From: Candidatus Latescibacterota bacterium | Lineage (GTDB): Bacteria > Latescibacterota > UBA2968 | Assembly (NCBI GenBank): GCA_965207885.1 | Contig: OZ242311.1 | Span: forward strand, 1,088,001-1,152,000 | Length of the DNA stretch: 64,000 bases | Direction of reading: 5' to 3' | Part shown: piece by piece, positions 48,760 to 64,000 of the stretch | Layout: each line of letters begins with the position of its first letter | Position numbering within the stretch: the first letter of the stretch is position 1 | Notes under the pieces: generated by a model | The model's input: the letters and a program-made list of their open reading frames with translations, nothing else | Database searches by the model: none | What the model was told of the DNA's origin: nothing | Position numbers and translations under genes: made by a program

Positions 48760-48780
48760 GTTCCCTCTCCATGCCGAGAA

Positions 48781-50121
48781 TTACTTACTCAGCTGTGCCG
48801 AGACCTCTACAATGGTTTCATGTATTACATCGACAACGTGTTGTACTTCAGATTCGGTGATGGTGAAAGGGGGGCTGATGGCGATATGGTCGCCTTCGAC
48901 ACCATCGACCAGGCCGGGGGCTCCGGGCATGACCAGTACCCCTTTTTCAAAGGCCAGATCCACGATCCTTGCGGTTACCCCTTTTGAGAGGTCGAAGGGG
49001 GCACGCGTGGATTTGTCGGCTACGAATTCGATGCCGATCAGCAGGCCCTTCCCGCGTATGCCCCCGACGATCGGCAGGTTCTGCAGGGGCATGAATTTTT
49101 CCAGCATCAGGTCGCCCATCCGGGCGCAGTTCGATACCAGATCGTGCGTCTGGATGTAGTTTTGCACGGCCAGGGCCGTGGCGCAGGAAAGGGCGTTTCC
49201 GCCATAGGTGTGTCCGTGTACAAAAGAGACGGATTCCCTGTAGATAGCATTGTAGATTTTTTCGTGGACGACGGTTGCGGCAATGGGCGTATAACCGCTA
49301 CTCAATCCTTTCCCGGTCGCCATAATATCGGGGACCACATCCCAGTGTTCGATGCCGAAGTTGCGGCCTGTCCTGCCAAAACCGGTGACGACTTCATCGA
49401 CGATCATCAGGATATTGTGTCGGTCACAGATCTCCCGAATGAGCGGGTAGTAGTCCTGAGGAGGGGTCACTCCGGCGGCGGAGGTGCCGAGGATCGGTTC
49501 GGCGATAAAGGCGGAGATCGACTCGCTCCCCTCCTGTTTGATGACCCGCTCCAGTTCCTCTGCGCAGTGGAGTTGGCATTCCGAGTGGTCCTTACAGTAG
49601 GCGCACCGATAGGGGTAGGGCGGCGGGATATGGGGGAAATTCAGCAGGTAGGGAATATAGTCCTTGCGCCAGGGCGACCGCCCGGACATGGAGAGGGCAC
49701 CAACCGTATTCCCGTGCCAGGCCTGCCACCGGGAGATGACCCTGTACTTTCCGGGATTGCCGGTTGCGATATGGTACTTCCGGGCGATTTTCATGGCCGA
49801 CTCTGTAGCTTCGGACCCTCCGGAAACGAAAAAGACCCGGTTCAGGTCTCCCGGCGTGAAGTCGGCGATCCTGTCCGCCAGGTCGATCTGGGGCTGGGTG
49901 AGGAATCGGGCGTAGGTGAAACAGACCTTCTCCGCCTGTTCTGCCATGACTTCTGCGATCTCTTTGACTCCGTGGCCGATACTGACCACATGCACACCCG
50001 CACAGGCGTCGAGATAGCGCTTTCCTTCCATATCGAACAGGTAAATGCCTTCTCCATGTGATATTTTCGGCCATTCTTTTTTGAGGGTTCTGTGAAAGAT
50101 GTGGTCTTTATGCCGGGGCAT
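48781..50121 (-). CDS. Class III PLP aminotransferase (BioA/omega-amino acid type)
   Basis: SGGSEATE, WHGNT.GALS, FIAEP, DEVVTGFGRTG, PDIMATGKGLSSGY; ATG after AAAGGA. Confidence 0.9.
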   Translation of the reverse strand: MPRHKDHIFHRTLKKEWPKISHGEGIYLFDMEGKRYLDACAGVHVVSIGHGVKEIAEVMAEQAEKVCFTYARFLTQPQIDLADRIADFTPGDLNRVFFVSGGSEATESAMKIARKYHIATGNPGKYRVISRWQAWHGNTVGALSMSGRSPWRKDYIPYLLNFPHIPPPYPYRCAYCKDHSECQLHCAEELERVIKQEGSESISAFIAEPILGTSAAGVTPPQDYYPLIREICDRHNILMIVDEVVTGFGRTGRNFGIEHWDVVPDIMATGKGLSSGYTPIAATVVHEKIYNAIYRESVSFVHGHTYGGNALSCATALAVQNYIQTHDLVSNCARMGDLMLEKFMPLQNLPIVGGIRGKGLLIGIEFVADKSTRAPFDLSKGVTARIVDLAFEKGVLVMPGAPGLVDGVEGDHIAISPPFTITESEVQHVVDVIHETIVEVSAQLSK

Positions 50122-50456
50122 GGTTTTTCCTTTCTTTGTATAAAATTGCCAGGTAGCGAGCAAGATAGCCTTTCGGCACCGGTCCCGCAAGCAATTCGGG
50201 ATCTCTTCCCGCGCACTCACTATTTTGAAACCTTTAGATGTATGGCGTGTATCTAAGATGTAACAAGGGATGGACAGTAATCGAGAAATATGTTCGAGAT
50301 TGTGAAACTTTGTCAATGTTCAATGCGTTTAAGAAAGGTATATAACAATTCATTAAACAATGCTGGGAGGGGGTGACAATCAAAATGGTAACGCCAACTG
50401 TTGTAACAGAATCTCACACCGGGTCGGGTAAAGAGGAACAAGTGGTAGGAGATACA

Positions 50457-51320
50457 ATGGAATACACGCAACAAGGAACGCAGTACGCGCGCGAAGCTTC
50501 TGTTCAGAGCTATCTCAAGGAACTGCGCAAGTACCCCCCATTGAGCCGAGAAGAAGAACAAAAAGTCCTTCGCAAGGCCAAACGGGGAAATCAAGCGGCG
50601 ATTGACAAGATTATTACGTCAAACTTGCGTTTTGTCGTCAGTGTTGCGCTCGAATATCAGGGGCGGGGTGTGCCCCTTGCCGATTTGATTGCCGAGGGCA
50701 ATATGGGTTTGATGGAAGCCCTCAAGCGATTTGACGAAGAACGCGGGTTTAAGTTTATCAGCTATGCCGTGTGGTGGATTCGGCAGTGCATTCTCAATGC
50801 GCTCAAGCGCACGTCTAATGTGGTTATGCCTGCAAATCGCCAGGAGGATATGGACCGGATGGCGCGCCGCTGGGGACAGATGACCCAGGAACTGGGGCGC
50901 GTGCCCACGCTGGACGAAGTTGCCAGCGATATGAAGATCAGCAACAAACGCGCAGAGCGGGCGTTGCGCTGTGTGCGCCCAGATCTGTCTCTTTCTATGC
51001 CCGTAGATACGGCGGGCGAGCAGCCGCTTCAGAATATACTCGAGGCCGATGAAGAGGATCCAGATCAACTCGTGATATACCGGGATCAGTCCGAGTTTAT
51101 ATTACGGTCTCTCAATGATTCTCTGGATCCCCGGGAGCGAGATGTTATTCGCGCTTATTTTGGTCTCGACGGAGGTGAGCGCCGGACGCTGAGTGATATT
51201 GGCTGTTCTCTGGGTGTTACCCGAGAGCGCGTGCGCCAGATTCGCAACCGCGCCCTTGCCAAGTTGCAGCGATATTTTCGGAGAAATGTTCCGGGTGGAA
51301 AAGTGGAAGATCTGGTCTGA
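50457..51320 (+). CDS. RNA polymerase sigma-70 factor, RpoD/SigA family lacking region 1.1
   Basis: YLKEL..PLS.EEE, NLRFVVSVA, DLIAEGNMGL, GFKFISYAVWWIRQ, TRERVRQI; start may be as far upstream as 50373. Confidence 0.9.
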   Translation: MEYTQQGTQYAREASVQSYLKELRKYPPLSREEEQKVLRKAKRGNQAAIDKIITSNLRFVVSVALEYQGRGVPLADLIAEGNMGLMEALKRFDEERGFKFISYAVWWIRQCILNALKRTSNVVMPANRQEDMDRMARRWGQMTQELGRVPTLDEVASDMKISNKRAERALRCVRPDLSLSMPVDTAGEQPLQNILEADEEDPDQLVIYRDQSEFILRSLNDSLDPRERDVIRAYFGLDGGERRTLSDIGCSLGVTRERVRQIRNRALAKLQRYFRRNVPGGKVEDLV

Positions 51321-51341
51321 TACCATCTTATCTTCGGAGTA

Positions 51342-51376
51342 TAAAGGCGGTTCTGGTTTTTCCAGGGCCGCCTTTA
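51342..51376. terminator. Hairpin/terminator after the sigma factor gene
   Basis: TAAAGGCGGTTCTGG..CCAGGGCCGCCTTTA. Confidence 0.55.
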
Positions 51377-51479
51377 CTGTGTAAAGCAGTTTTAGCAAAT
51401 GCCTTGAAAAGGGTTGATTTATTCAAAAATGGAGTGTAGATTCTACACGCTTTCTGGATCCTTTTAACCCGCCTCACTT

Positions 51480-52271
51480 TTGAGCTTCCCCCTCGCTATG
51501 GGCCGATTATTTGCATTCCTCGGTGGGCAACTCGCCGCATTTTTTATCCAGGTTTTCCAGATGTTTTGCTATGGCGTCCAGTGCGTGACGGAAATGCGGC
51601 ATATCTACCTCTATCGACATCAGATTATCGGACAGTGTTATGCTGTTGGGGTTAGCTCTCTGCCTCTGGTTTGTCTGATTTCGGCTTTTAGCGGGATGGC
51701 GATCGCTATTCAGACGGCTTATCAGATGGAAGAGTACGTGCCCGACTATATGGTTGGTGCGCTTATGGTCCGCTCTGTGATACTCGTGCTGTCGCCTATT
51801 TTGTTGGGTCTCGTACTCGCGGGCAGGGTGGGTGCGGGCGTTGCGTCTGAACTCGGCACAATGAAAGTCTCAGAGCAAGTGGATGCGCTCGCGTCAATGG
51901 CTGTCGATCCAGTGGGGTATCTCATGTTGCCCCGAATGCTCGCGGGCGCGATTATGGTTCCAGTTCTCGTGATTTATTCCTTTTTGGTCGCGAATATCTG
52001 CGGGTTTGGTATGTCGATGATCAAGATGGCTATTACGCCTACAGAGTTGGTCAAAGGTATGAAGCTCTATTTTGAGGTGTATGATGTTTTTGTCGGGTTG
52101 GTCAAATCCTTTGTTTATGGTGGGTTGCTGACGTTTATGGGGTCTTACAAGGGGCTTTGCACTGCAGGCGGCGCACAGGGCGTTGGACGGGCTGCTACGG
52201 CTGCAGTTGTGATATCTTCTGCGCTGGTTCTCATTCTCGATTATTTTTTAACACACGCGTTGTTGTATTAA
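51480..52271 (+). CDS. mlaE: MlaE-family ABC permease
   Basis: AGRVGAG.ASELGTMKVSEQVDAL..MAVDP, GGAQGVGRA.T.AVV. Confidence 0.9.
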   Translation: MSFPLAMGRLFAFLGGQLAAFFIQVFQMFCYGVQCVTEMRHIYLYRHQIIGQCYAVGVSSLPLVCLISAFSGMAIAIQTAYQMEEYVPDYMVGALMVRSVILVLSPILLGLVLAGRVGAGVASELGTMKVSEQVDALASMAVDPVGYLMLPRMLAGAIMVPVLVIYSFLVANICGFGMSMIKMAITPTELVKGMKLYFEVYDVFVGLVKSFVYGGLLTFMGSYKGLCTAGGAQGVGRAATAAVVISSALVLILDYFLTHALLY

Positions 52272-52274
52272 ACT

Positions 52275-53018
52275 ATGGCAAATGAAACGGCTATTGAGTT
52301 TGTCGAGGTGTTTAAGTCTTTTGAAGCACAACCCGTGCTGAAAGGGCTTGACCTGCGGGTTCCCCGGTCTGAGATTACGACGATTTTGGGACCGAGTGGA
52401 TGCGGCAAAAGTGTGACCTTAAAGCATGTGATTGGGATTGAGCGGGCCGATGAGGGAAAGGTCGTCGTTGCCGGTTATGACATGGAGCGGATTCGCCATG
52501 GCGAGTTGATCGAGTTGCGCAAGCGCATCGGGGTTTTATTTCAGTCTTCGGCACTTTTTGATTCTATGACGGTGAAAGAAAATGTGGCTTTTGGGTTGCG
52601 TATGCACACCAGGATGTCCGAAGAAGAGATTGCAGAGCGCGTGCATATCTGTCTCGATGCCGTGCGGTTGGCAGGTACAGAGGCCAAGATGCCGGTTGAG
52701 TTGTCGGGGGGAATGAGAAAACGCGCAGCACTTGCGCGGGCCATTGCGATGGAACCCGATTTTATTCTTTACGATGAGCCCACAACGGGTCTGGATCCAA
52801 ATACATCCAGTGTTGTGGGTGACTATATATTGAAATTGCAATCGGAACTCAATGTGACATCGGTGGTCGTCACCCACGATATGCCCCTTGCCCGGCGCGT
52901 TTCAGATCGGATTGCTCTGCTCTATGACGGCAAAGCTGTGGTTCAAGGTGCAATGGAAGATGTCGAGGCATCTGGCAATGAGTTTTTTGAATTATTTATT
53001 CAGGGCAAGTTGGGGTAA
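52275..53018 (+). CDS. mlaF: MlaF-family ABC ATPase
   Basis: GPSGCGKS, LFQSSALFDSMTV, LSGGMRKR, LYDEPTTGLDP. Confidence 0.9.
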   Translation: MANETAIEFVEVFKSFEAQPVLKGLDLRVPRSEITTILGPSGCGKSVTLKHVIGIERADEGKVVVAGYDMERIRHGELIELRKRIGVLFQSSALFDSMTVKENVAFGLRMHTRMSEEEIAERVHICLDAVRLAGTEAKMPVELSGGMRKRAALARAIAMEPDFILYDEPTTGLDPNTSSVVGDYILKLQSELNVTSVVVTHDMPLARRVSDRIALLYDGKAVVQGAMEDVEASGNEFFELFIQGKLG

Positions 53019-53021
53019 CTT

Positions 53022-53933
53022 ATGAGAAATCGTCGGCAAGAAATTATTCTGGGTGCAGTTGTATTTTTTGCAGCCGTTATTCTGGTGGTCGGCACGGTGT
53101 GGCTCTCTGAGCGCTATGCAGGTGCGGCTGGCGGATATCGCATCCATGCTAAGTTCGACAGTGTGCCGGGGCTTCAAGTGGGCAATCCCGTGACGTTTCG
53201 CGGGGTGCGGGTGGGAAAGGTATTGTCTATTACTCTTGAGGATGGGCTGCCTTTTGTTGCGCTCGGATTTGCCTCAGTGAGAGATTTACCCGTGGATTCT
53301 CGTTTTTTACTCAAATCCGACGGTCTGCTGGGTGGGCAGATGATCGAAATTCAGTTGGGAGAGTCGGAACAGCGTCTTCCAGATGGCGCTGTTGTGGAGG
53401 GGACTTCTGCTTCTGATCTCGATGCAATGGTGTCTGAAAGCAGGCTTATGATCGAAAAGATTCGCAATGCAGTAGATGGCGTAGCCAGTGATAACAATCT
53501 CGCGCATCTGGAAAGCGTTCTTTCGCGTATTGATACGACCACGTACTATCTCAACCGATTATTGAATGACGATAATCTGGGTAAGGTCGATAAGATGCTC
53601 GACAGTTTGGCGGTGGCGACGGGCGATGCGAGTGGTTTGATGCGGGATAATCGCGAAAATTTGAGTGTTGCAGTGACCAATATAGCTGTGACGATGGAAC
53701 GCCTTGCGCGGATTTCGGCACAGATGGAATCGACTTCGGTTGCAATGCAGAATACATTTGCCAATCTCGATGATATTTCCAAAGGGATACGAGACGGACG
53801 CGGTACGGTCGGGCGTTTGGTTAAGGACGAAGCCGTGTACGAGCATCTGGATCGCACACTGACGTCTGTGGATAGTCTTATTGAAGATATCAAGCGGAAT
53901 CCCAAACGCTATCTCACCATTGAGATATTTTGA
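53022..53933 (+). CDS. mlaD: MlaD/MCE-domain protein with helical extension
   Basis: N-terminal TM, GLQVGNPV..RGVRVGKV, GLLG, GTVGRLV.D..VY, DIKRNPKRY. Confidence 0.85.
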   Translation: MRNRRQEIILGAVVFFAAVILVVGTVWLSERYAGAAGGYRIHAKFDSVPGLQVGNPVTFRGVRVGKVLSITLEDGLPFVALGFASVRDLPVDSRFLLKSDGLLGGQMIEIQLGESEQRLPDGAVVEGTSASDLDAMVSESRLMIEKIRNAVDGVASDNNLAHLESVLSRIDTTTYYLNRLLNDDNLGKVDKMLDSLAVATGDASGLMRDNRENLSVAVTNIAVTMERLARISAQMESTSVAMQNTFANLDDISKGIRDGRGTVGRLVKDEAVYEHLDRTLTSVDSLIEDIKRNPKRYLTIEIF

Positions 53934-53943
53934 GGAGTTCACT

Positions 53944-54816
53944 ATGGTTATCAAGATTCTGCTTTTGCTCGTTGCTCTTGCATCTACAATCTCAGCTACC
54001 GATCTGGCGTGGTTTCATTGGAAGGATAATGACGCGATCTCTTTTGGCGGATTTGTACCCGAGATGCGAGCCGTAAAAGCAATTGTGGGAGAAGGTGATG
54101 AGGCACCGCGCATTGTGTATGGCGACCGTCATGGGGCCATTTATGTGCTGGAAATGCAAGGGGGGCGCTTTCGAGAGGTGTGGAGAAGTCCTCCACTGAG
54201 AGCGGAGATTGCAGAAGTTTTTGTTCTGGATATCGATGTCGATGACGAGCTCGAGATCGTTGCATATACCCATGCTGGAGATATTGCTTTTTATCGTGCC
54301 AGCGATTTTCATGAGATATGGCGAAGCACGGACGATGAGTTTGCATCGGTTTCGGCTATGGTGATTGAAAATATCGATGACGACCCGCAACTCGAGCTGG
54401 TGTTTTGCGGCGAGGATGCCGCAGAGAGTCGGAGCTATCGACCGCCGGGTGGCTCACGCGATAATTCCGATCAGGATCGCGCTGCACAAATTGGGCGCTT
54501 GTTTGTGTTTGATTGCAAAAATCTGTTTTTAGAATGGCGCAGCGAGCAGGGGCTGTGGGCACAGAGTATGGCTGTTGGCGATCTCGATGACGACGGTGAG
54601 CTTGAGATTGCACTCAATACGGGGTTTGTTATTGGCGCGACTTATCAACGCGTTGAGTGGGAATACCTCGATGGCTTTGGTGATAAGATTGGGTACGCTG
54701 ATCTCGATGGCGATGGCATACCCGAGTTGATCGGCGAGACGAAAAAGCCCCGTCAATTTATTCGCATTTTTGATGTGGATCTGCAATCCGAAAGTTTTCT
54801 GAGTTCTGGTAGGTAG
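53944..54816 (+). CDS. Secreted FG-GAP/VCBS-repeat-like protein
   Basis: Signal peptide; repeats DIDVDDELEI, NIDDDPQLEL, DLDDDGELEI, DLDGDGIPEL. Confidence 0.65.
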   Translation: MVIKILLLLVALASTISATDLAWFHWKDNDAISFGGFVPEMRAVKAIVGEGDEAPRIVYGDRHGAIYVLEMQGGRFREVWRSPPLRAEIAEVFVLDIDVDDELEIVAYTHAGDIAFYRASDFHEIWRSTDDEFASVSAMVIENIDDDPQLELVFCGEDAAESRSYRPPGGSRDNSDQDRAAQIGRLFVFDCKNLFLEWRSEQGLWAQSMAVGDLDDDGELEIALNTGFVIGATYQRVEWEYLDGFGDKIGYADLDGDGIPELIGETKKPRQFIRIFDVDLQSESFLSSGR

Positions 54817-54865
54817 AAGTGTGAAGTAGGAAGTGTGAAGAGCAGCAGGCGTGACGATAGGAATA

Positions 54866-54906
54866 GCGATTGTCATTGCGGCATGATTTTGAGCCGCAAT
54901 CCAGAA
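54866..54906. repeat. 41-bp palindromic REP-like element, copy 1
   Basis: GCGATTGTCATTGCGGCATGATTTTGAGCCGCAATCCAGAA; near-identical to 55171-55211. Confidence 0.75.
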
Positions 54907-54931
54907 GATTTTCGCTGATCGCTTGTTTATC

Positions 54932-54960
54932 TTGACGGTCTCTGGCAAAATGGGTAAATT
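54932..54960 (+). promoter_or_regulatory. Sigma-70 promoter of tRNA-Pro
   Basis: TTGACG-17 nt-TAAATT, 18 nt upstream of the tRNA. Confidence 0.6.
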
Positions 54961-54978
54961 TATTTGTGAACGAGTTGT

Positions 54979-55055
54979 CGGAGCGTAGCGCAGCTCGGTA
55001 GCGCACCATCTTGGGGTGATGGGGGTCGCTGGTTCAAATCCAGTCGCTCCGACCA
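54979..55055 (+). tRNA. tRNA-Pro (GGG)
   Basis: CGGAGCG/CGCTCCG acceptor stem, anticodon arm CCATC-TTGGGGT-GATGG, GGTTCAAATCC T-arm, encoded CCA; 77 nt. Confidence 0.97.
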
Positions 55056-56434: not shown

Positions 56435-56600
56435 GCTGGTCGCGGCATTACTGAATACAGTCTTTTCAGCACAGGCCCTGCCGCGACTACTACCCTCCTG
56501 CCTGCCCTGTGTTCTTCAGGGTATTTTTATTGGACCTCCTCTTTCTCTCGAAAAAGTAGAAATATGAGGGAAAATGACACATATGCGGAATATTTTTGAA

Positions 56601-56630
56601 TTGCAATTTCGCAAACGATTGTGGTATAAT
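56601..56630 (+). promoter_or_regulatory. Sigma-70 promoter upstream of the AraC-type regulator
   Basis: TTGCAA-18 nt-TATAAT with extended -10 TG. Confidence 0.65.
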
Positions 56631-56631
56631 T

Positions 56632-56773
56632 AAAAAGCCGCCGACAAGACCTAGATAAAGTCATCTGTCAGCGGCGGGTTAGCCTGCTTGCGCGAGTGTC
56701 AGCGCGCAGGCAAGTATCTCAAGCGGACAACTTGAGAATACCCAAAAATAACGATCCAAATCTCAATTGTCAA
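56632..56773 (-). ncRNA. Putative cis-antisense RNA with three hairpins and its own promoter
   Basis: Minus-strand TTGACA (56773-56768)-17 nt-TATTTT; three stems; the last pairs better on the minus strand (G.U) and ends in U5. Confidence 0.45.
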
Positions 56774-56804
56774 CCATTGAGATTTTTGGCTTGCTGCTGG
56801 TGCT

Positions 56805-57494
56805 ATGGATAAGCAGAAAATTTTGATTATAGGTCATGCAATCTATACTATGTCGGAGTTCATAAGATTCGTGATTGATGGCCCTCATGAAGTATTTGCT
56901 GCGCCTGATGGGCGAGAAGGGCTTGAAATTTTAAGGAGCGAGCAGATAGACCTTGCCATAGCCGAGATGTATATAGAGGACGTTGATGGGGTACACTTTG
57001 CGAAGCGCGTACGGGCAGAGAAAATTCAGACAGATATCTTGCTCAGGGCAAGGTCTGAATCTCTAAATTTGGACGAAGAAGTACGCAAGACAAGCGTAAG
57101 TGTGTTCCCCATTATGAGAGATAAATTTTTGGTGAAGATCAAAACGTCTATGTCTTCGCAATATCCGTGGAAAACAGAGTTGGAATCATTTCTGAATGAG
57201 AAATACTGCAATCCAGAGCTAAAATTTGACGACCTTATGGACCATTTCCTGTTCTGTAGATCCTATGGTTGCAAACTGTTTAAAAAACATCTTGGCAAGA
57301 CCTTCTCGGAAATATTGAGGGAGACGAGAGTTGCAAAGGCACAACAGTATTTGATAGAAGAACCGTCATTGCTGATCTATGAAATATCAGACAAATGTGG
57401 GTTTCGTGAACAAAAGCGTTTGTATGAGGCTTTCATTAAAGTACACGGTATTTCGCCTACTGAGTACCGAAGAAGAAATGTAAATCAGGACTAA
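56805..57494 (+). CDS. AraC-family regulator with atypical receiver domain
   Basis: APDGREGLEIL..EQIDLAIAEM....DG receiver-like region; LFKKHLGKTF..IYEISDKCGF....F.KVHGISPTEYR AraC HTH. Confidence 0.82.
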   Translation: MDKQKILIIGHAIYTMSEFIRFVIDGPHEVFAAPDGREGLEILRSEQIDLAIAEMYIEDVDGVHFAKRVRAEKIQTDILLRARSESLNLDEEVRKTSVSVFPIMRDKFLVKIKTSMSSQYPWKTELESFLNEKYCNPELKFDDLMDHFLFCRSYGCKLFKKHLGKTFSEILRETRVAKAQQYLIEEPSLLIYEISDKCGFREQKRLYEAFIKVHGISPTEYRRRNVNQD

Positions 57495-57501
57495 TGTTGC
57501 G

Positions 57502-57567
57502 TTGCGCGTGTTCGTGACAGGTGCTGCGGGATTTATCGGAGCTAATGCGAGATGTCGGCTACAATAG
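57502..57567 (+). pseudogene. N-terminal remnant of an NAD-dependent epimerase/dehydratase
   Basis: Translates LRVFVTGAAGFIGAN, then unrelated sequence and a stop. Confidence 0.65.
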
Positions 57568-57648
57568 ATGTTTGAGTTGAATGTGCATTTGGTCGGTCTA
57601 AATCCATCAGTTTTAGCCGTTATCGCAACCTAATCTTATGTCTCCAGT

Positions 57649-58827
57649 ATGGGTTTAGCCACCAAACAGCCTGAATCTGATCATGAGATCAAGCTAAAGG
57701 GCTTCGAGTTTATAAGATTCTTCATTCTGTCTATTATCGCATCGAGTATTCTGCTTATTGCAGGGGTTGTGATTTTAGGCTGGGATGTCGAAATGGAAAT
57801 TAGTGTTGAGGCGTCGGGGCACGTTGAACCCGTTGAGAAAAAATTTGTCAAATCAGAGACCGTGGGGACGATAGAGAAGGTGCTTATTCACGCGGGTCAG
57901 CAGGTCGCAAAAGGGGATACGCTTTTTGTTCTCGGTGCTTCAGAGTGGAGAAAAGAGGCCGCGAAAATAGAAAAAGAGATTGCAATTAATCAACGACAGA
58001 GAGAGGAACTCAGAGAGACATTATTTTTTGATCGGCAAAGGATAGAATCAAGTCTTGACCAGGCGCGGCTCGAACACGAAGCAAGCGGTCTTAGGCTTGA
58101 ACAGATTTTACAGGAGCAACAATTGTATCAAAAATATCTGAAAGAGAGAAAGGAACGGACACGACCTCTTGAGACGCTTTTACCTGTAAAACTTCAGGAG
58201 AACAATCTCAACCGTGTTCAGCAACGCATGACCTATCTGAAAATTGAGCGTGATGCTCTGGCTGTTAGAGAGAAAGAAATCCAAACTTTGAAACTGGTGG
58301 GGGATAAGCTCATGCAAGAACGCGATTGGATTCAGGAACAGATACGGAAAACCACCATCACTTCCCCAATCGCAGGTATTATTCTGACATCAGATATTGA
58401 GACGATTGAGGGCGATAGGGTTTCGGTTGGTAGTCCGGTATTGGAATTGGCGCAGTTAAATGAATGGCAGGCGAGGGTTTTTGTGCAAGAGGTGGATATT
58501 TCAAAAATTGAAATGGGTCAAGATGTCAAGTTGTACATCCATGCGTTTCCGCATATGAATTACAAAATTTTTAGTGGTAGGGTTAGCGAATTGCCCAGCC
58601 GGAATCAAGTCGTGCCTCCCAATGCAACGGCTCTGACATTATACCCGGTGAAGATATTGATCGATGAACCTTTTGTTCGCAGTGGTGATCAGGTCTATCC
58701 GGTGGCGTATGGCATGCGGTTAGATGCGAAGATCATTATTGAAAGAAATTTTTTATGGGAAATTGCGTGGAAAAAGATAAAAGAGGCTTTTGGTATCGTT
58801 GACAAGAAAAATCCGTTGGTTTTTTAA
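57649..58827 (+). CDS. HlyD-family membrane fusion protein
   Basis: N-terminal TM, GQQVAKGDTLF, coiled coil, ITSPIAG, DISKIEMGQ.V, YPVK, GM..DAKII. Confidence 0.88.
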   Translation: MGLATKQPESDHEIKLKGFEFIRFFILSIIASSILLIAGVVILGWDVEMEISVEASGHVEPVEKKFVKSETVGTIEKVLIHAGQQVAKGDTLFVLGASEWRKEAAKIEKEIAINQRQREELRETLFFDRQRIESSLDQARLEHEASGLRLEQILQEQQLYQKYLKERKERTRPLETLLPVKLQENNLNRVQQRMTYLKIERDALAVREKEIQTLKLVGDKLMQERDWIQEQIRKTTITSPIAGIILTSDIETIEGDRVSVGSPVLELAQLNEWQARVFVQEVDISKIEMGQDVKLYIHAFPHMNYKIFSGRVSELPSRNQVVPPNATALTLYPVKILIDEPFVRSGDQVYPVAYGMRLDAKIIIERNFLWEIAWKKIKEAFGIVDKKNPLVF

Positions 58828-58858
58828 TTGATGACAGGCAAACCGGAGATCGGGAATC

Positions 58859-60574
58859 TTGACGCAAATATTCACTATTGTTAAGATGCTGCGGCCTTAT
58901 TGGCGGTATATCATTCAGTCGCTTTGTGTTGGCATTTTGTTTATGTTGTTTCAGATACCAGGACCTTATTTCACGAAAATAATGATCGATGACGTATATC
59001 CGCATAAAGATTTCTCTCTGTTGAATTTTGTTCTGTTGTTGGGCATGCTGATGTCGTTGGGCGTGGGTGGGATGAGGTTTATCAGTGGGTATTTTGGTCA
59101 GTGTGTTGGCATCCGGATGGGATATGATTTTCAAGCGCGTTTTTACAAACATATACAAACGTTGGATTTTGGTTTTTTTGATAGCCGGGAGACGGGTGAA
59201 ATACTATCTCGATTTCGAGATATGCGAAGTTCAATTGCCAGTGTCATCAGTTTGATTAACACGCTGATTATCAATTCGCTCCAACTCCTAATTTTTCCGC
59301 CCATTCTGTTCTTTATCAATTGGAAACTGGCACTGATTAGCCTCACGGTCTTGCCCTTTGACACGCTGTTGGTTATGATTTCAAGGCGGTTTATACGCAA
59401 ATATACAAGAGAAGTTGCAGAACGCTCAGCAGAGTTATCGGCGAAAAATTACGAGTCCATCTCTTCAATTAGAACAGTACAGTCTTTGGGGTTGGAGGCT
59501 TCATTTTTTCAGAAGCTACAGGGATTGTTCATCGGTGTGGCAAATTTGAGAATGAAAGTGTCGCTTTTTTCGGGCACAACGGGATATGCCAGCACCATTA
59601 TCAAGACAGGCGGAACACTTGCCTACGGCTTCTACGGATGGCACGAGGTGTTATCTGACAATTTGACGTTGGGAAGTTATATGGCTTTTACGGGCTATGT
59701 GGGGTATTTGTATGGACCCATAAAAAGTCTCATTGGCCTGTTGCGGCGCATCGAATCCACGCTGGTTCATACGGACCGCTTTTTTGAAGTCTATAATATC
59801 ACGCCTGACATACGCGATGAACCGCAGTTGGCTGAACTCAACGGGGTTCGTGGAAGGATAGAGTTTCGAGATGTCAATTTTGCATATCAGCCCGAAAGGG
59901 TGGTGTTGAACGAGATCAATCTCGAGATTGACGCTGATCAGACAGTAGCTATTGTTGGAAGAAGTGGGTCGGGCAAATCTACCCTGGCAAAGCTCATTCC
60001 GAGATTTTACGATCCAGTGGATGGTCAGGTCTTGATCGATGGGGTCGATATCAGGCAATACCGTCTCAATTCTCTGCGCCAAAATATCGGCTTTGTGATG
60101 CAAGGCAGTGCGCTGTTTCAGGGGAGTATTTTGGAGAATCTGACGTTTAACAAACCGATTTCCCTGATCGATGTCGAAGCCGCAACCCGGGCAGCCTATA
60201 TCCACGATTTTGTCACGCGGCTACCCAAAGGTTATCACACGATCATCGGTGAGCAGGGGGCGCAACTTTCAGAGGGGCAAAAGCAGAGGGTCGCACTTGC
60301 ACGAGTGCTACTACAGAACACACCCATCTTGATTTTGGATGAACCCACTGCGGCACTGGATAACGAGTCTGAGTTTTATATTCAAGAAGCGATGAAGGAA
60401 ATTTGCAAACAAAGAACAGTGATCGTCATTGCCCATCGTCTGTCAACCATCCGGCGTGCAGACAAAATCGTGGTCATCGACCAGGGAAGAATTGCTGAGG
60501 AAGGCAGCCACGAGGTTTTGATGCTGCAAGATGGTGTTTATTCCATGCTCCAGGAGCGAGCCGCGAGGATTTGA
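58859..60574 (+). CDS. ABC exporter (TMD plus NBD), no C39 peptidase domain
   Basis: FFDSRETGEILSRF.D, GRSGSGKST, LSEGQKQR, ILDEPTAALD, IAHRLST. Confidence 0.92.
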   Translation: MTQIFTIVKMLRPYWRYIIQSLCVGILFMLFQIPGPYFTKIMIDDVYPHKDFSLLNFVLLLGMLMSLGVGGMRFISGYFGQCVGIRMGYDFQARFYKHIQTLDFGFFDSRETGEILSRFRDMRSSIASVISLINTLIINSLQLLIFPPILFFINWKLALISLTVLPFDTLLVMISRRFIRKYTREVAERSAELSAKNYESISSIRTVQSLGLEASFFQKLQGLFIGVANLRMKVSLFSGTTGYASTIIKTGGTLAYGFYGWHEVLSDNLTLGSYMAFTGYVGYLYGPIKSLIGLLRRIESTLVHTDRFFEVYNITPDIRDEPQLAELNGVRGRIEFRDVNFAYQPERVVLNEINLEIDADQTVAIVGRSGSGKSTLAKLIPRFYDPVDGQVLIDGVDIRQYRLNSLRQNIGFVMQGSALFQGSILENLTFNKPISLIDVEAATRAAYIHDFVTRLPKGYHTIIGEQGAQLSEGQKQRVALARVLLQNTPILILDEPTAALDNESEFYIQEAMKEICKQRTVIVIAHRLSTIRRADKIVVIDQGRIAEEGSHEVLMLQDGVYSMLQERAARI

Positions 60575-60575
60575 T

Positions 60576-60905
60576 ATGTTTTTTGATATGCTTAAAGCAA
60601 AGTGCCCAAACTGTGGATATAGAAACGATTGGGAAGGATCATTTAAATGGTTTAATCCCCCTCGCACCTGGCCCTGTAAGAAATGTGGCATCATGCTTGA
60701 AATGGATCGCAGGAGAGGATTCCTCGTGCTGCTCATATATGCGGCATTCTGGTTATTTTTTGAGTTATGGGTCAAGGATTGGAGCTTTCTTGTCTATTAT
60801 CTCCTGCCGGTTGGCATTCTCATCATTCTTTCATTGAAGCGCGTTAAAATTGTGCAATCTTCAGACCAAAATTCTGATGCTGATAACCCCAAAAGTGCCG
60901 TTTAA
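60576..60905 (+). CDS. CxxC-x20-CxxC zinc-ribbon membrane protein A
   Basis: CPNC-x20-CKKC then two hydrophobic helices; RBS GAGG. Confidence 0.75.
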   Translation: MFFDMLKAKCPNCGYRNDWEGSFKWFNPPRTWPCKKCGIMLEMDRRRGFLVLLIYAAFWLFFELWVKDWSFLVYYLLPVGILIILSLKRVKIVQSSDQNSDADNPKSAV

Positions 60906-60938
60906 CAAAGCTCCAAAAGCGTTTAGCGAGGATTTAAT

Positions 60939-61274
60939 ATGTTCAAAGCAAAGTGCCCAAATTGTGGATATAACCGCCCGTGGGAGGAGTATAAATGGTG
61001 GACCTGGAAACCTGGCCTCACCTGGCCCTGCAAGAAATGTGGCATCATGCTTAAAGATGATCTAAGAAGGTCGTTCTTGCTGCTACCAATATTCGTGGCT
61101 TTCTGGTTGTTTTTTGAATTCTGGGTCAAGGATTGGAGCTTTCTTGTCTATTGTCTTCTGCCAGTTGGCGTTTTTATCATTCTTTCATTGCTGCGCGTTA
61201 AAATTGTGCAATCTTCAGACCAAAATTCTGACGCTGATAGTCAAAAAGCACCTCTTGACAAGGAAAGGGGGTAA
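60939..61274 (+). CDS. CxxC-x21-CxxC zinc-ribbon membrane protein B (tandem duplicate of A)
   Basis: CPNC-x21-CKKC; long nucleotide stretches identical to A. Confidence 0.78.
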   Translation: MFKAKCPNCGYNRPWEEYKWWTWKPGLTWPCKKCGIMLKDDLRRSFLLLPIFVAFWLFFEFWVKDWSFLVYCLLPVGVFIILSLLRVKIVQSSDQNSDADSQKAPLDKERG

Positions 61275-61358
61275 ATGAGAGATCGCTACATGGTGCTTTG
61301 TTCATAGTGAATGGAAAACATTCACAGATTTCTAATTTTTACAGTATTGGAGGATCAC

Positions 61359-61769
61359 ATGCAAAAGCTGGTAAAAAGAAAGATGCATTACGAGACCATT
61401 ATGCCCGTAGAGGCTTATGAGGAAGAGAATAATAACAATGATGATTGGACGGAGGATCTAGTTAGTATTGGTATCACTTTTTTGGGGGCAGTCACTGGAT
61501 TCGTAACTAGAAACCCTTGGGTAGGAGCTGCTGTTGCTAGTGTTGGTATCGGACATACCGTCGCGAATAATGAAGAAATGATGGAGGGCATAACCGCGGG
61601 AATTCATGCCCAGACAGAAGCTGATTTGCAAATGGCTGATGCTGCATTAAATGCAGTTAATAATGCATATAATAATGGCGCACAGGCTATTACAGATGCA
61701 TATATAGATTGGACTAGTGACCTTGACATTGACTACGACGACCCACTCGTACAAGCATATGGTGAATAG
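61359..61769 (+). CDS. Putative bacteriocin/RiPP precursor with CLI_3235-like leader, 136 aa
   Basis: ATG after GGAGG; leader MQKLVKRKMHYETIMPVEAY; acidic Cys-free core with Gly/Ala hydrophobic hairpin. Confidence 0.65.
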   Translation: MQKLVKRKMHYETIMPVEAYEEENNNNDDWTEDLVSIGITFLGAVTGFVTRNPWVGAAVASVGIGHTVANNEEMMEGITAGIHAQTEADLQMADAALNAVNNAYNNGAQAITDAYIDWTSDLDIDYDDPLVQAYGE

Positions 61770-61873
61770 GGAGTGACAAAGTTAGGAGGCATCTTGATGA
61801 TTGCAGGTATTGTACTTCTATATTGAGTGCAATACCTGCTAAATTTTCTCATCCAAGATGGAGGACCAAAAAT

Positions 61874-62191
61874 ATGCCAATGAACTTAAAAAACATTTAT
61901 TCCTGTCCAAAGTGTGGACATCCTGTGGGAAGGTGGCGCAAATTGAATGCCGGTATTTTTAGCCAATGGCCCTGCAAAAATTGCGGTACTCTCTTGAAGG
62001 TTACTTACTGGAAAGGTATGATTTTTGTTTCTATAATCATCTTGTTAATCTACTTATGGATTACTCCTCAGAGAACTATTTTGGATATTCAGCTATTAAT
62101 CTTAGGCTTGATCATATTTGATATTTTAGTAAAAATGTTTATCAGTCCGATTATTGAGAAAAGTCCACGTCAAAAGCCTGATTCTGAGTGA
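61874..62191 (+). CDS. CxxC-x19-CxxC zinc-ribbon membrane protein C
   Basis: CPKC-x19-CKNC plus two TM helices; RBS GGAGG. Confidence 0.75.
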   Translation: MPMNLKNIYSCPKCGHPVGRWRKLNAGIFSQWPCKNCGTLLKVTYWKGMIFVSIIILLIYLWITPQRTILDIQLLILGLIIFDILVKMFISPIIEKSPRQKPDSE

Positions 62192-62210
62192 GTTTTTGGA
62201 GTTCCAATAT

Positions 62211-62516
62211 ATGCCAATGAACTTAAAAAAAATTTATACCTGTCCAAAGTGTGGTCATCCAATTGGATGGCGTCGCAGATTGAGTGCTAACATCTTTAGT
62301 ATATGGCCCTGCAAGAATTGCGGTACTCCTTTGGGTTTTGGTTCTGTGAGACGCCTGATTTTAGTTTCTATAGTTACCTTGTCAACCTGGTTATGGCTTA
62401 AACCTCAGGTGAATTTTTGGGTCTTTCTGGTAATCTTTGCATCGGGATTGTTCGTTGCAGGATATGCCGATCCGGTTGTAGAGAAGCAGGAACCACAGCG
62501 GCCTGATGCAAAGTGA
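62211..62516 (+). CDS. CxxC-x19-CxxC zinc-ribbon membrane protein D (paralog of C)
   Basis: MPMNLK.IY.CPKCGHP..WPCKNCGT shared with C; RBS GGAG. Confidence 0.75.
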   Translation: MPMNLKKIYTCPKCGHPIGWRRRLSANIFSIWPCKNCGTPLGFGSVRRLILVSIVTLSTWLWLKPQVNFWVFLVIFASGLFVAGYADPVVEKQEPQRPDAK

Positions 62517-62557
62517 GCGTATCGAAGATATAACGTGCGGACAACAATGGGCTACCC

Positions 62558-64000
62558 ATGAAATACAAATGCAATTTTCATGATCTAAGCGGAGAGGGTG
62601 TCAAGGTTGCAATTATTGATAGCGGGATTGATCGTTCGCATGAAGTGTTGCAGCATGTGACCGCAGGAATCTGTTTTGAGTTTTCTGAGGGTAATGTCCT
62701 TACGTCCCAAGACTATCGAGACTCATCTGGTCATGGCACGGCGGTTGCGAGTATTATTAAAAAGAAGGCTCCGGGTACAGAGCTATATGCTATAAAAATC
62801 TTCGATCAATCTTTAATTGTAGAACAAAAAATTCTCGTTGAGTCCATTCGCTGGGCAATTGATCAGAATGTCGATATCATCAATCTGAGTCTTGGGACAA
62901 CGGACGCGCAGGTCAAGCATGCTCTATTGGATATATGCAAGGTGGCAACGAAAAAGGGTATCGCAATCGTCGCTGCCGAACACAATTCAGGACAAGAGAG
63001 TTATCCCGCCTATTTCTCCAATGTGATCGGTGTGAAGGCGGGGGAGATAAAAGGGCGTTACAATTATCTGTTTCGCGCAGGAGAGTCTATTGAATGTATC
63101 GCACCTGGAACAACGCAGCGCGTTCTCTGGGCAGGGGGGCGAGAGCATATTGTTGAAGGCAGTAGCTTTGCTGCGCCCCAAATTACGGGTATTATCGCTT
63201 TAATCAGACAGGCTTTTCCCAAAGCCAATCTGGATGAGATTAGAAACATATTGGAGGCGAATGCCAGTCGAGAAGTGCAGCAAAAAATCCCTTCAGGTCG
63301 CAAGATTCGCTTGCCTACCCCCCAAACGCCTCAATCCTTTGATCCAAACAAAATCAAAAGAGCAGCTATTTATCCCTATAACAAAGAAATGCATAGCCTA
63401 ATGCGTTTCAGGGAGTTGTTAAAGTTTGAAATTGTGGGTATCGCTGATCCCATTGCCAAAGGTTATGTTGGGAAAGATGCTGGTGAAGCGATAGGCATAC
63501 CGCCGGTTGGCATACGGGTTCAGCCGCGATTTCAAGAGATATTGAAAGAGGCTGATACACTCATTCTGGGCTATGTAGATGAACTGAGTCGAATTACTAA
63601 AAAGAATGTCCTGCGCGAGAGTATTGAGAAAGCCATTGATGCCAACTTAAATGTGTTCAGCTTTTTGTCCGTTTATCAGAAGGATTTGAGAGATCTGATC
63701 GATAAGGCTCGTAAAAAGAACCTCTGGATTTATTCGCCTGACGTTCATCAAAACGATCTGCTTAAAGCACTTCAGCCCCACAATAATCCAGCCGTTGATG
63801 TGCCAGTTATCGGTGTTTTTGGCACGAGTGCTCAACAGGGTAAGTTCACTGTTCAACTCGCCTTGAGGTCAAAGCTGATAAAAGAGGGATATAAGGTTGG
63901 GCAAATCGGCACCGAACACCATTCTCAGTTATTTGGCATGGATGTGGCATTTCCAACGGGCTACGCCTCTCCACTGCAATTTCCAATACAACTTCACGCG
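62558..64000 (+). CDS. S8 (subtilase) peptidase fused to a DUF1611-like P-loop domain; runs off the window end and is missing from the ORF track
   Basis: Manual translation: VAIIDSG, GHGT, INLSLG, GSSFAAP catalytic triad motifs; then YPYNKEMHSL..RF and PVIGVFGTSAQQGKFTVQL..GQIGTE. Confidence 0.88.
   Translation, partial: MKYKCNFHDLSGEGVKVAIIDSGIDRSHEVLQHVTAGICFEFSEGNVLTSQDYRDSSGHGTAVASIIKKKAPGTELYAIKIFDQSLIVEQKILVESIRWAIDQNVDIINLSLGTTDAQVKHALLDICKVATKKGIAIVAAEHNSGQESYPAYFSNVIGVKAGEIKGRYNYLFRAGESIECIAPGTTQRVLWAGGREHIVEGSSFAAPQITGIIALIRQAFPKANLDEIRNILEANASREVQQKIPSGRKIRLPTPQTPQSFDPNKIKRAAIYPYNKEMHSLMRFRELLKFEIVGIADPIAKGYVGKDAGEAIGIPPVGIRVQPRFQEILKEADTLILGYVDELSRITKKNVLRESIEKAIDANLNVFSFLSVYQKDLRDLIDKARKKNLWIYSPDVHQNDLLKALQPHNNPAVDVPVIGVFGTSAQQGKFTVQLALRSKLIKEGYKVGQIGTEHHSQLFGMDVAFPTGYASPLQFPIQLHA

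Follow-up and report, generated by a model that had tools for sequence, protein, structure and literature searches.

The last part of the window, a stretch of 64,000 nucleotides (nt; positions 1088001-1152000) of the 6.2 Mb single-contig genome of a sponge-associated Candidatus Latescibacterota bacterium, carries a gene cluster which, on balance, we interpret as a functional system for the maturation and export of a ribosomal peptide or small protein. It comprises a leader-bearing precursor, a fusion of an S8 protease with a DUF1611 domain, an acyl carrier protein (ACP) and an ATP-binding cassette (ABC) exporter with its HlyD adaptor. The leader would be cut by the S8 domain, the core would be modified by the DUF1611 domain and the ACP, and the product would be exported via the ABC and HlyD proteins. 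Gene content, synteny, folds and the conservation of leader and catalytic motifs are direct observations, whereas we infer the chemistry of the modification and, likewise, the cleavage site, the loading of the ACP, the modification site, the export route and the role of the accompanying zinc-ribbon proteins. The co-occurrence of these genes, which a previous sequence-only reading of this DNA had expected to see in other genomes, is real: the core of the cluster recurs across 69 loci and a second copy is present 100 kb upstream in the same genome, so that the arrangement is more than chance.

Between 56805 and 64000, the genes form one run on the + strand, in the order regulator, HlyD, ABC exporter, two zinc-ribbon proteins, precursor, two further zinc-ribbon proteins and S8-DUF1611 fusion. 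The G+C content is 0.38-0.49 over 56500-64000, compared with mostly 0.48-0.60 over 48000-55000 upstream. Gene content, order, strand and AT-richness had all been described in the sequence-only reading, and every item was confirmed by the open reading frame (ORF), Pfam, NCBIfam and G+C data. The continuation of the cluster past the window was also borne out, as the fusion gene ends at 64474 and is followed by two more genes. Positions past the window are window-equivalent coordinates, obtained by adding 55999 to the position in L003, the next 12 kb fetched past the window. Among the genes looked for downstream, an ACP-like gene was found, whereas ORF and domain scans of the segment revealed no radical S-adenosylmethionine (SAM) enzyme, no TolC and no second precursor. 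The features of the cluster, all on the + strand, are as follows.

56805-57494, +, receiver/AraC-type regulator (HTH_18 E 9.1e-17, HTH_AraC E 4.3e-7, Response_reg 29.9 bits for a cut-off of 30.2)
57649-58827, +, HlyD-family periplasmic adaptor (HlyD_3 E 2.1e-12, HlyD_D23 E 3.8e-11)
58859-60574, +, ABC exporter of 571 amino acids, membrane domain and ATPase (ABC_membrane E 1.5e-35, ABC_tran E 1.7e-34)
60576-60905, +, zinc-ribbon (CxxC...CxxC) protein, type 1, predicted to span the membrane with two helices (TIGR04104 E 1.9e-6, 28 bits for a cut-off of 45, profile positions 2-85 of 93)
60939-61274, +, zinc-ribbon two-helix protein, tandem type 1 paralogue, 71% identical to the preceding one (221-nt direct DNA repeat, 85% identity)
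61359-61769, +, precursor of 136 amino acids, with a basic 20-residue leader ending in V-E-A-Y and a 116-residue acidic, Cys-free core (GGAGG 5 nt before the ATG)
61803-61839, +, 15-bp stem-loop with T-rich tail, from a terminator-like scan, directly 3' of the precursor gene
61874-62191, +, zinc-ribbon two-helix protein, type 2 (TIGR04104 E 2.9e-5)
62211-62516, +, zinc-ribbon two-helix protein, tandem type 2 paralogue (TIGR04104 E 2.3e-4; 227-nt direct repeat, 74% identity)
62558-64000, +, S8 protease-DUF1611 fusion, cut by the window end; full length 638 amino acids, to 64474 (Peptidase_S8 E 6.7e-32, DUF1611 E 5.3e-12, DUF1611_N E 1.6e-5)
64471-64740, +, ACP of 89 amino acids, overlapping the stop of the fusion gene by 4 nt (PP-binding PF00550 E 8e-11, 42.5 bits for a cut-off of 20.8)
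to 65762, +, directly after the ACP gene, CcbD-fold protein of 339/346 amino acids (Pfam BtrH_N, PF14399, 25.3 bits for a cut-off of 29.7, residues 98-143 only)

In the fusion protein, the S8 domain (PF00082, 111.4 bits for a cut-off of 21.8) and both DUF1611 models (PF07755, 46.0 for 25; PF17396, 25.6 for 22.6) passed the Pfam thresholds. The S8 peptidase announced by the sequence-only reading has an intact catalytic triad, D21/H59/S203, which is invariant in 59 of 59 full-length fusions, and the oxyanion residue N109 is present in 57 of the 59. By inspection, neither a signal peptide nor a pro-domain is observed. Among NCBIfam models, the S8 part matches QhpE best (E 4.7e-42, 143.8 bits for a cut-off of 165), with mycosin and PatA next; all three are cytoplasmic maturation proteases, and the S8 part is taken to be cytoplasmic as well. 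The S8 part resembles QhpE, PatA/PatG and the mycosins in having no signal peptide or pro-domain and in its proposed leader-bearing substrate. In contrast to these enzymes, it is fused to DUF1611, has its own [V/I]-x-A-Y motif and remains under the QhpE cut-off.

The DUF1611 part aligns with TIGR04066 over positions 1-360 of 361 (E 6.9e-43), with 147 bits for a curated cut-off of 200. The likeness to TIGR04066 proposed in the sequence-only reading is thus full-length, but does not amount to membership; on this match, the domain is best described as a TIGR04066 homologue outside the curated family. Its P-loop, G422-T-S-x-Q-Q-G-K-F430, is invariant in the 59 fusions, as are T452-E453, Q505-S-G507, N540 and D543. 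The structural model of this part has a predicted local distance difference test (pLDDT) score of 88.5, and the closest structures retrieved with Foldseek are 2G0T (E 1.5e-13) and 2OBN (E 8.9e-13), followed by 7XRJ, titled 'N-acetyltransferase DgcN' (E 6.7e-12, template-modelling score 0.58/0.65). A clear step below are Rossmann reductases, MurD ligases (E 3.7e-6) and the succinyl-CoA synthetase alpha subunit (E 6.5e-6). At the sequence level, the only PDB match is 2G0T (E 0.016), and neither an NCBIfam nor a sequence-level match of the DUF1611 part to DgcN was seen. DgcN, the one structural relative that has been characterised, acetylates D-glutamate with acetyl-CoA in D-glutamate catabolism. 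A DgcN-DgcA pathway is mentioned in the literature. The fusion shares with DgcN the two-domain DUF1611 fold, and its donor would also be a phosphopantetheine thioester if the analogy holds. The fusion differs from DgcN in that its DUF1611 domain is joined to a protease and paired with an ACP instead of free acetyl-CoA, and in that it would act on a peptide as acceptor.

No Pfam or NCBIfam family matches the precursor. Among seven close relatives, the first 20 residues are nearly invariant and the core is variable. More broadly, 24 precursors share a basic N-terminus of 19-23 residues that ends in [V/I]-x-A-Y (in some cases L-Y) and is usually followed by acidic residues. When a profile of this leader was iterated over 12,406 Met-start peptides from both strands of all loci, all 63 matches fell on the same strand as the fusion gene, corresponding to 37 distinct ORFs in 32 loci, and the opposite strand gave none; inclusion of the first-pass model brings the loci with leader ORFs to 34 of 69 (31 of 55). 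The identical type of leader precedes long acidic cores and short Cys-rich cores, clade by clade, and the clades with Cys-rich cores have clusters with thioredoxin, rhodanese and MauE/DoxX genes. In the Bacteroidetes locus L060, where a radical SAM/SPASM maturase accompanies the fusion, this leader precedes a core with 10 Cys. As the fusion enzyme and the ACP are what clusters with differing cores have in common, it is most likely the fusion enzyme to which the leader is addressed. In the Firmicute and Kryptoniota loci (L068, L073 and L071), a simple search for ORFs with this type of leader gave nothing convincing.

The cores of the 24 precursors are 97-138 amino acids long, with net charges from -3 to -23, and Cys is absent in 17 of them. 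The core encoded in the window has a net charge of -20, no Cys and a maximal 19-residue Kyte-Doolittle mean of 1.34; it includes a Gly/Ala-rich stretch of only moderate hydrophobicity. These values give no direct support to the membrane-active toxin proposed in the sequence-only reading. At the C-terminus (61716-61766), D-I-D-Y-D-D-P-x-V-Q-[A/L]-Y-G-E closes five of the seven close precursors. This motif echoes the V-x-A-Y at the end of the leader, and a second, small match of the leader profile is observed there; the motif could mark another site of cleavage or act as a secretion signal at the C-terminus.

The pairing of leader and fusion enzyme was also examined by complex prediction. The fusion with residues 1-60 of the precursor scored 0.38, compared with 0.01 for the best of three controls, which lends weak support to the pairing; the runs agreed on at least 24% of the contacts and the pLDDT of the partner was at least 35. 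In the calibration of the tool, 58 of 80 solved complexes and 2 of 110 mismatched pairs attained the mark set for a positive result, and scores of at most 0.60 were obtained for only 7 of the 80 and for both passing mismatches.

The ACP scored 20.1 bits with TIGR04069 (E 6.6e-4), under the curated 70, and its serine is invariant in 30 of 30 sequences. One phosphopantetheinyl transferase is encoded elsewhere in the genome. The 346-residue protein encoded next to the ACP was modelled with a pLDDT of 73, which falls under 50 at residues 42-73, and exhibits a bipartite fold with a papain-like N-domain and a helical C-domain (Foldseek E 1.9e-7). The best structural match is CcbD (Z 15.9, root-mean-square deviation 4.1, 294 aligned residues), followed by AziU2/U3 (Z 14.5) and CtaG (Z 13.3). 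A search of PDB sequences returned no match when the single sequence was used and nothing but FlgN noise when a profile was used. Its His131 and G-Y-D139 align with the canonical BtrH_N+DUF4872 proteins (hhalign E 1.7e-5), in which a Y-x-C motif seems to correspond, by position from the start Met, to G-Y-[L/P]-[H/R]-H (here G-Y-P-R-H). Canonical proteins with Y-x-C occur in 16 other S8-DUF1611 loci (17 ORFs), and the relatives at L025 and L048 passed BtrH_N with 45-47 bits and also carry DUF4872. An alternative pairing of the canonical Cys with Cys45, produced by MAFFT, was rejected, as the position from the start Met and the structural ranges give His26.

CtaG is a papain-like ligase with a Cys11-His128-Asp144 triad that takes an acyl group from one carrier protein, and BtrH and AsbE are its homologues, according to the sections of PMC12865890 that deal with these enzymes. 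The 346-residue protein resembles CcbD, CtaG, BtrH and AsbE in its whole fold, in its His and the Asp of G-Y-D and in the neighbouring carrier protein gene. It is unlike CcbD, CtaG and BtrH in remaining under the BtrH_N cut-off and in the Cys site, which is apparently a His. AziU2/U3 match its structure about as well as CcbD and CtaG, yet the reaction of AziU2/U3 is described in the same sections as unrelated (PMC12865890).

A scan with one genome per species recovered the 69 loci with relatives of the fusion protein. Nearly all are from Latescibacterota, including every record among the near relatives of the source genome, which are labelled Candidatus Latescibacterota; a few are from Gemmatimonadota, and Bacteroidetes, Erysipelotrichaceae, Clostridia and Kryptoniota are represented by single records. 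In Latescibacterota the family has undergone expansion, one genome carrying as many as six fusion loci. Searched against 1.84 billion representatives, the DUF1611 part gave 1378 matches at E<=1e-3 and 443 at E<=1e-30. As 124 of the best 150 representatives have fusion length (>=560 amino acids), the fusion is the usual form of the clade and not a novelty of the source organism. It is not a diderm invention either; the Firmicute locus L068 also has the fusion, adjoining a radical SAM gene. Gene neighbours were counted with profiles built on the loci, using the 60 loci with a complete 3' end for the ACP and, for the other genes, the 55 loci flanked by 5 kb or more on each side, as follows.

ACP gene starting -250 to +300 nt from the stop of the fusion gene: 49 of 60 loci
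ACP gene anywhere in the locus: 56 of 60
ABC gene: 50 of 55
CcbD/BtrH-fold gene, either sub-family: 41 of 55
HlyD gene: 37 of 55
receiver/AraC regulator: 29 of 55
CPBP protease: 18 of 55
zinc-ribbon proteins: 7 of 55

The second copy in the source genome, about 100 kb upstream (L004 2543-14256, approximately 1042542-1054255), is 99% identical to the window cluster in HlyD and ABC, 96% in the fusion and 97% in the ACP. Its precursor has the same first 20 residues, with one conservative change, and a different core of 138 residues. The place of the zinc-ribbon genes is taken by genes for a CPBP intramembrane protease, a family-2 glycosyltransferase, a second CcbD-fold paralogue and a DUF2059 protein, and the terminal CcbD-fold gene is frameshifted (188 + 213 amino acids). 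In L005 and L015, the fusion is 93-94% identical to that of the window and the ABC and HlyD proteins only 57-60% and 33-37%; in L027 and L051, the ABC and HlyD proteins are 93-95% identical and the fusion only 50-51%. The precursors differ in all four. These identities indicate that the family shuffles export, maturation and precursor modules among loci. Other genes are found in some loci. L005 (7823-9883) and L015 (7828-9888) encode, between precursor and fusion gene, a 686-residue TPR protein with a central segment that by eye resembles a C39-type cysteine peptidase. AhpC/thioredoxin, rhodanese, MauE/DoxX, Yip1, DUF5128 six-bladed propeller, Kelch and GT28 genes are found in L012, L017, L025, L033 and L048, and L033 also has nitrile-hydratase-beta-like genes; the short Cys-rich precursors of these five loci, with the same leader, suggest disulfide-rich products.

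Based on these observations, a sequence of steps can be proposed. The 136-residue precursor would be made in excess over the enzymes, with the strong stem-loop located after its gene. A hairpin in this position is a common way for the output of a precursor to exceed that of the enzymes. The stem-loop region has a folding energy of -34.7 kcal/mol (z -3.6), which none of 200 shuffles equalled, and hairpins of -20 kcal/mol or lower follow 17 of 39 precursor genes compared with 26 of 114 ABC/HlyD genes. The S8 domain would then recognise the basic 20-residue leader and cut after its V-x-A-Y end; that it removes the leader at this point is the part of the scheme that we consider likely. The DUF1611 domain, with the phosphopantetheinylated ACP, would put an acyl or aminoacyl group on the core, and the freed N-terminus would be the most economical target. 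A carrier-dependent modification of the core by this pair has, in our view, a slightly better than even chance. By analogy with DgcN, the acyl group may pass from acyl-ACP to an amine, a tentative proposal that we hold at less than even. In its most specific form, a 'cut-and-cap' reaction in which the fusion would remove the leader and then N-acylate the exposed N-terminus, with acyl-ACP replacing acetyl-CoA, it is an attractive but rather doubtful guess. The CcbD/CtaG/BtrH-fold protein would assist or add a second carrier-dependent step. The acidic product of about 116 residues would leave the cell by the C39-less ABC exporter and HlyD, with a TolC encoded elsewhere, and the four zinc-ribbon membrane proteins would serve as immunity factors or export accessories.

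Several results weigh against this scheme. Every match of the cluster proteins to curated TIGR families is under the cut-off, and the same holds for all matches to type I secretion models. TIGR04065 matched none of the 24 precursors at E<=10, the leader profile is empty in 35 of the 69 loci, a protein atlas search with the precursor gave a best score of 0.80, within the noise range, and a core of about 116 residues is large for a modified peptide. The score of the predicted complex falls where the tool rates predictions as mostly wrong unless the pairing was likely beforehand. No ACP-loading enzyme is evident in the cluster, and the DUF1611 domain, which keeps a nucleotide-type P-loop, could be an ATP-dependent ligase. 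Finally, in the CcbD-fold protein, the catalytic Cys of CcbD and CtaG may be replaced by His26, as suggested by the position from the start Met and the aligned structural ranges, without residue-level superposition.

In an alternative division of labour, DUF1611 would be an ATP-dependent ligase and charge the ACP with a carboxylic or amino acid, and the CcbD/BtrH-fold protein would transfer it to the peptide, with S8 again cutting the leader. The invariance of the P-loop, including the following residue (G-T-S-x-Q-Q-G-K-F-T, 59 of 59), and the ADP-forming ligases, MurD and succinyl-CoA synthetase alpha, among the second-tier folds are consistent with such loading, and the relatives CcbD, CtaG and BtrH draw acyl groups from carrier proteins, as stated in PDB titles and in the sections of PMC12865890 cited above; the canonical Y-x-C proteins of the 16 other loci also fit this alternative. 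However, in 14 of 55 loci the fusion and the ACP are retained although a CcbD/BtrH-fold gene is missing within 10 kb, the version of the window cluster is apparently devoid of the Cys nucleophile, and the closest characterised DUF1611 structure is titled N-acetyltransferase, not ligase. We regard ATP-dependent loading followed by transfer by the CcbD-fold protein as unlikely. It is also conceivable that the system performs leader removal and export only, releasing an unmodified acidic protein or bacteriocin, and that the ACP, DUF1611 and the CcbD-fold protein serve otherwise, for instance in the synthesis of a separate small molecule or in acyl-ACP sensing. The cores are long, highly variable and acidic, as are many type I secretion substrates, and have no conserved modification-site motif. 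Such separate substrates are nevertheless hard to square with a coupling this tight, given that the protease is covalently fused to DUF1611, with fusion length in 124 of the best 150 representatives, that in 49 of 60 loci the ACP gene directly adjoins that of the fusion and that the motifs of both domains are invariant, which makes this possibility quite improbable.

The interpretation put forward in the sequence-only reading, a diderm variant of the Cys-rich, radical-SAM CLI_3235 system secreting a membrane-active toxin, draws on real homologies, namely those that link the DUF1611 part with TIGR04066 and the zinc-ribbon proteins with TIGR04104, and on the Gly/Ala-rich hydrophobic stretch in the core; the combination of leader, 10-Cys core, radical SAM/SPASM maturase and fusion in the Bacteroidetes locus L060 points the same way. 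It becomes very improbable for the window cluster because the segment has no radical SAM gene, the nearest radical SAM/SPASM gene being about 237 kb away, because the core is Cys-free, strongly acidic and of low maximal hydropathy, and because none of the 24 precursors matched TIGR04065. A scaffold-peptide system, in which carrier-dependent enzymes would assemble a compound at the precursor end for later release by the protease, leaving the 136-residue protein as a reusable scaffold, would make use of the ACP and of the thiotemplated-ligase fold; the C-terminal motif of five of the seven close precursors, repeating the leader-end V-x-A-Y, might allow the protease to cut there as well. That motif is nonetheless confined to one close clade, no further tailoring enzymes are found in the window cluster, and the exporter, the immunity-like genes and the hypervariable cores better match a secreted peptide, so that we give this last explanation hardly any credit.

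Export by the ABC and HlyD proteins with a distant TolC is probable. The sequence-only reading had correctly noted that the exporter has no C39 domain: its alignment starts at position 137 of the HlyB profile and at position 148 of the profile of bacteriocin cleavage/export ABC proteins, which indicates that the N-terminal C39 peptidase domain is absent. The exporter scored 397.8 bits with TIGR01846 (cut-off 725.6), and HlyD 83.4 bits with the type I model TIGR01843 (cut-off 208.7). Seven TolC-family (OEP) proteins are encoded elsewhere in the genome and none in the cluster. The window cluster resembles type I secretion (HlyB/HlyD/TolC) in having an ABC half-transporter and HlyD in one operon, an acidic substrate and TolC elsewhere. 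In contrast to type I and C39-ABC exporters, it shows sub-cut-off scores and no C39 or C39-like domain, and its leader is N-terminal and presumably removed before export.

TIGR04104, which had been suggested as a test for the CxxC proteins, matches three of the four zinc-ribbon proteins of the window and 16 of 19 aligned family members at E<=0.01, with a lowest E of 4.5e-10 and an alignment over profile positions 2-85 of 93, but all window scores (21.5-28.2 bits) are below the curated 45; the zinc-ribbon proteins are accordingly best seen as distant relatives of TIGR04104. CPBP or zinc-ribbon membrane proteins adjoin the precursor in 20 of 23 first-pass leader loci. Only the position next to the precursor, the swap with CPBP in sister clusters and the tandem duplication bear on their role, and from these we propose, with somewhat less than even confidence, that they are immunity or export-accessory factors.

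The cluster is preceded by two features and lies in a segment of about 10.8 kb, with a tRNA at one side and a tRNA remnant at the other.

54979-55055, +, tRNA-Pro(GGG), detected by ARAGORN, the left border of the AT-richer segment
55267-56310, +, 347-residue protein, function unassigned, between tRNA-Pro and the regulator (no Pfam or NCBIfam match of weight)

The segment is closed by a decayed copy of the tRNA-Pro gene at L003 9842-9935 (65841-65934), about 80 nt past the CcbD-fold gene. This copy, of about 100 nt, corresponds to the 3' two-thirds of the tRNA, from the anticodon arm to about 50 nt beyond the 3' end, including the terminator hairpin; it aligns at 83% column identity and has lost 11 nt in the T arm. 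It was spotted by eye and then aligned; an intact tRNA 3' end (<=3 mismatches) was not found in the downstream DNA. Of the tRNA-Pro island proposed in the sequence-only reading, the tRNA and its decayed repeat were observed; Pfam and NCBIfam scans recognised no integrase in the segment, and an integrase-borne island was set aside for this reason. In another genome, L051 has the same tRNA-Pro ahead of a related cluster, together with a 347-residue-type gene and near-identical regulator, HlyD and ABC genes; its precursor differs, and the identity of its fusion enzyme to that of the window is only 50%. Because no integrase was seen and L051 shares the tRNA-side modules but not the precursor and fusion enzyme, the segment is read as a tRNA-adjacent hot spot with module exchange and not as a proven integrative island.

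The 347-residue protein is coiled-coil-like; it has an 80%-identical homologue in L051 (1891-3576), between tRNA-Pro and the regulator, and a fragment precedes the regulator in L014. It may be part of a regulatory module. A frameshifted receiver/AraC gene is located right after the tRNA remnant (L003 9994-10695, 65993-66694); over its first 47 nt, start region included, it matches the beginning of the cluster regulator gene at 79% identity. In the regulators of both clusters (56805-57100 in the window; 2543-2960 in L004), the receiver domain by eye lacks the usual N-terminal acidic pair and has a Glu where the phospho-acceptor Asp is expected (D-L-A-I-A-E). These receivers may be phosphorylation-independent; no kinase gene is present within the cluster.

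The closest described system is the CLI_3235/CcpM cassette, which the sequence-only reading had named for Firmicutes and which is documented in print. The passages on the SacP23 cluster of Paenibacillus polymyxa in PMC10731318 list a TIGR04065 precursor, a radical SAM enzyme (TIGR04068), TIGR04066, an ACP-related TIGR04069 protein, a subtilase and an ABC transporter, and only guess at the roles of TIGR04066 and the ACP in the Firmicute cassette ('immunity' and 'modification'). CcpM is named solely as an annotated enzyme in the corresponding passages of PMC9062424. The window cluster shares with this cassette the combination of a TIGR04066-type DUF1611 protein, ACP, subtilase, ABC exporter and leader-bearing precursor. 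It differs in having no radical SAM enzyme, the best TIGR04068 match in the whole genome being 171 bits for a cut-off of 500 and about 237 kb away, and in its core, which is 116 residues long, acidic and Cys-free, compared with about 42 residues and Cys-rich in the cassette. Protease and DUF1611 form one polypeptide, and a HlyD adaptor, as befits a cell with two membranes, a CcbD-fold protein and zinc-ribbon proteins are added. On these likenesses and differences, the window cluster is best considered a distant relative, and not a member, of the CLI_3235/CcpM cassette.

The enzyme system is catalogued in databases, and what is new is the variant of the window, radical-SAM-free, with a long acidic core and coupled to HlyD. 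Our literature search found no paper testing TIGR04066/DUF1611 or its ACP in peptide maturation. Latescibacterota in sponge microbiomes have been flagged as rich in unknown natural-product clusters, and the window cluster is not described in the relevant parts of these reports (PMC9426513, PMC12993501). Many of the metagenome-assembled genome records and sequencing runs of the family are labelled as sponge-derived; among the runs listed as containing the window sequence, none is from RNA.

The TIGR04066 (DUF1611) and ACP pair is listed in databases beside peptide maturases. As the window cluster has no radical SAM enzyme and a Cys-free substrate, the effect of the pair should be the sole modification, easily read by mass spectrometry, which makes the cluster a minimal natural test bed for DUF1611/ACP chemistry. 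If the ACP acylates a ribosomal product, this would constitute a new link between thiotemplated and ribosomal biosynthesis. If the cut-and-cap reaction takes place, sponge symbionts would secrete N-acylated acidic proteins of about 100 residues via a type I-like pump. Such proteins would form a new class of ribosomal acyl-peptides, and the TIGR04066/TIGR04069 pair would thereby gain its first assigned function.

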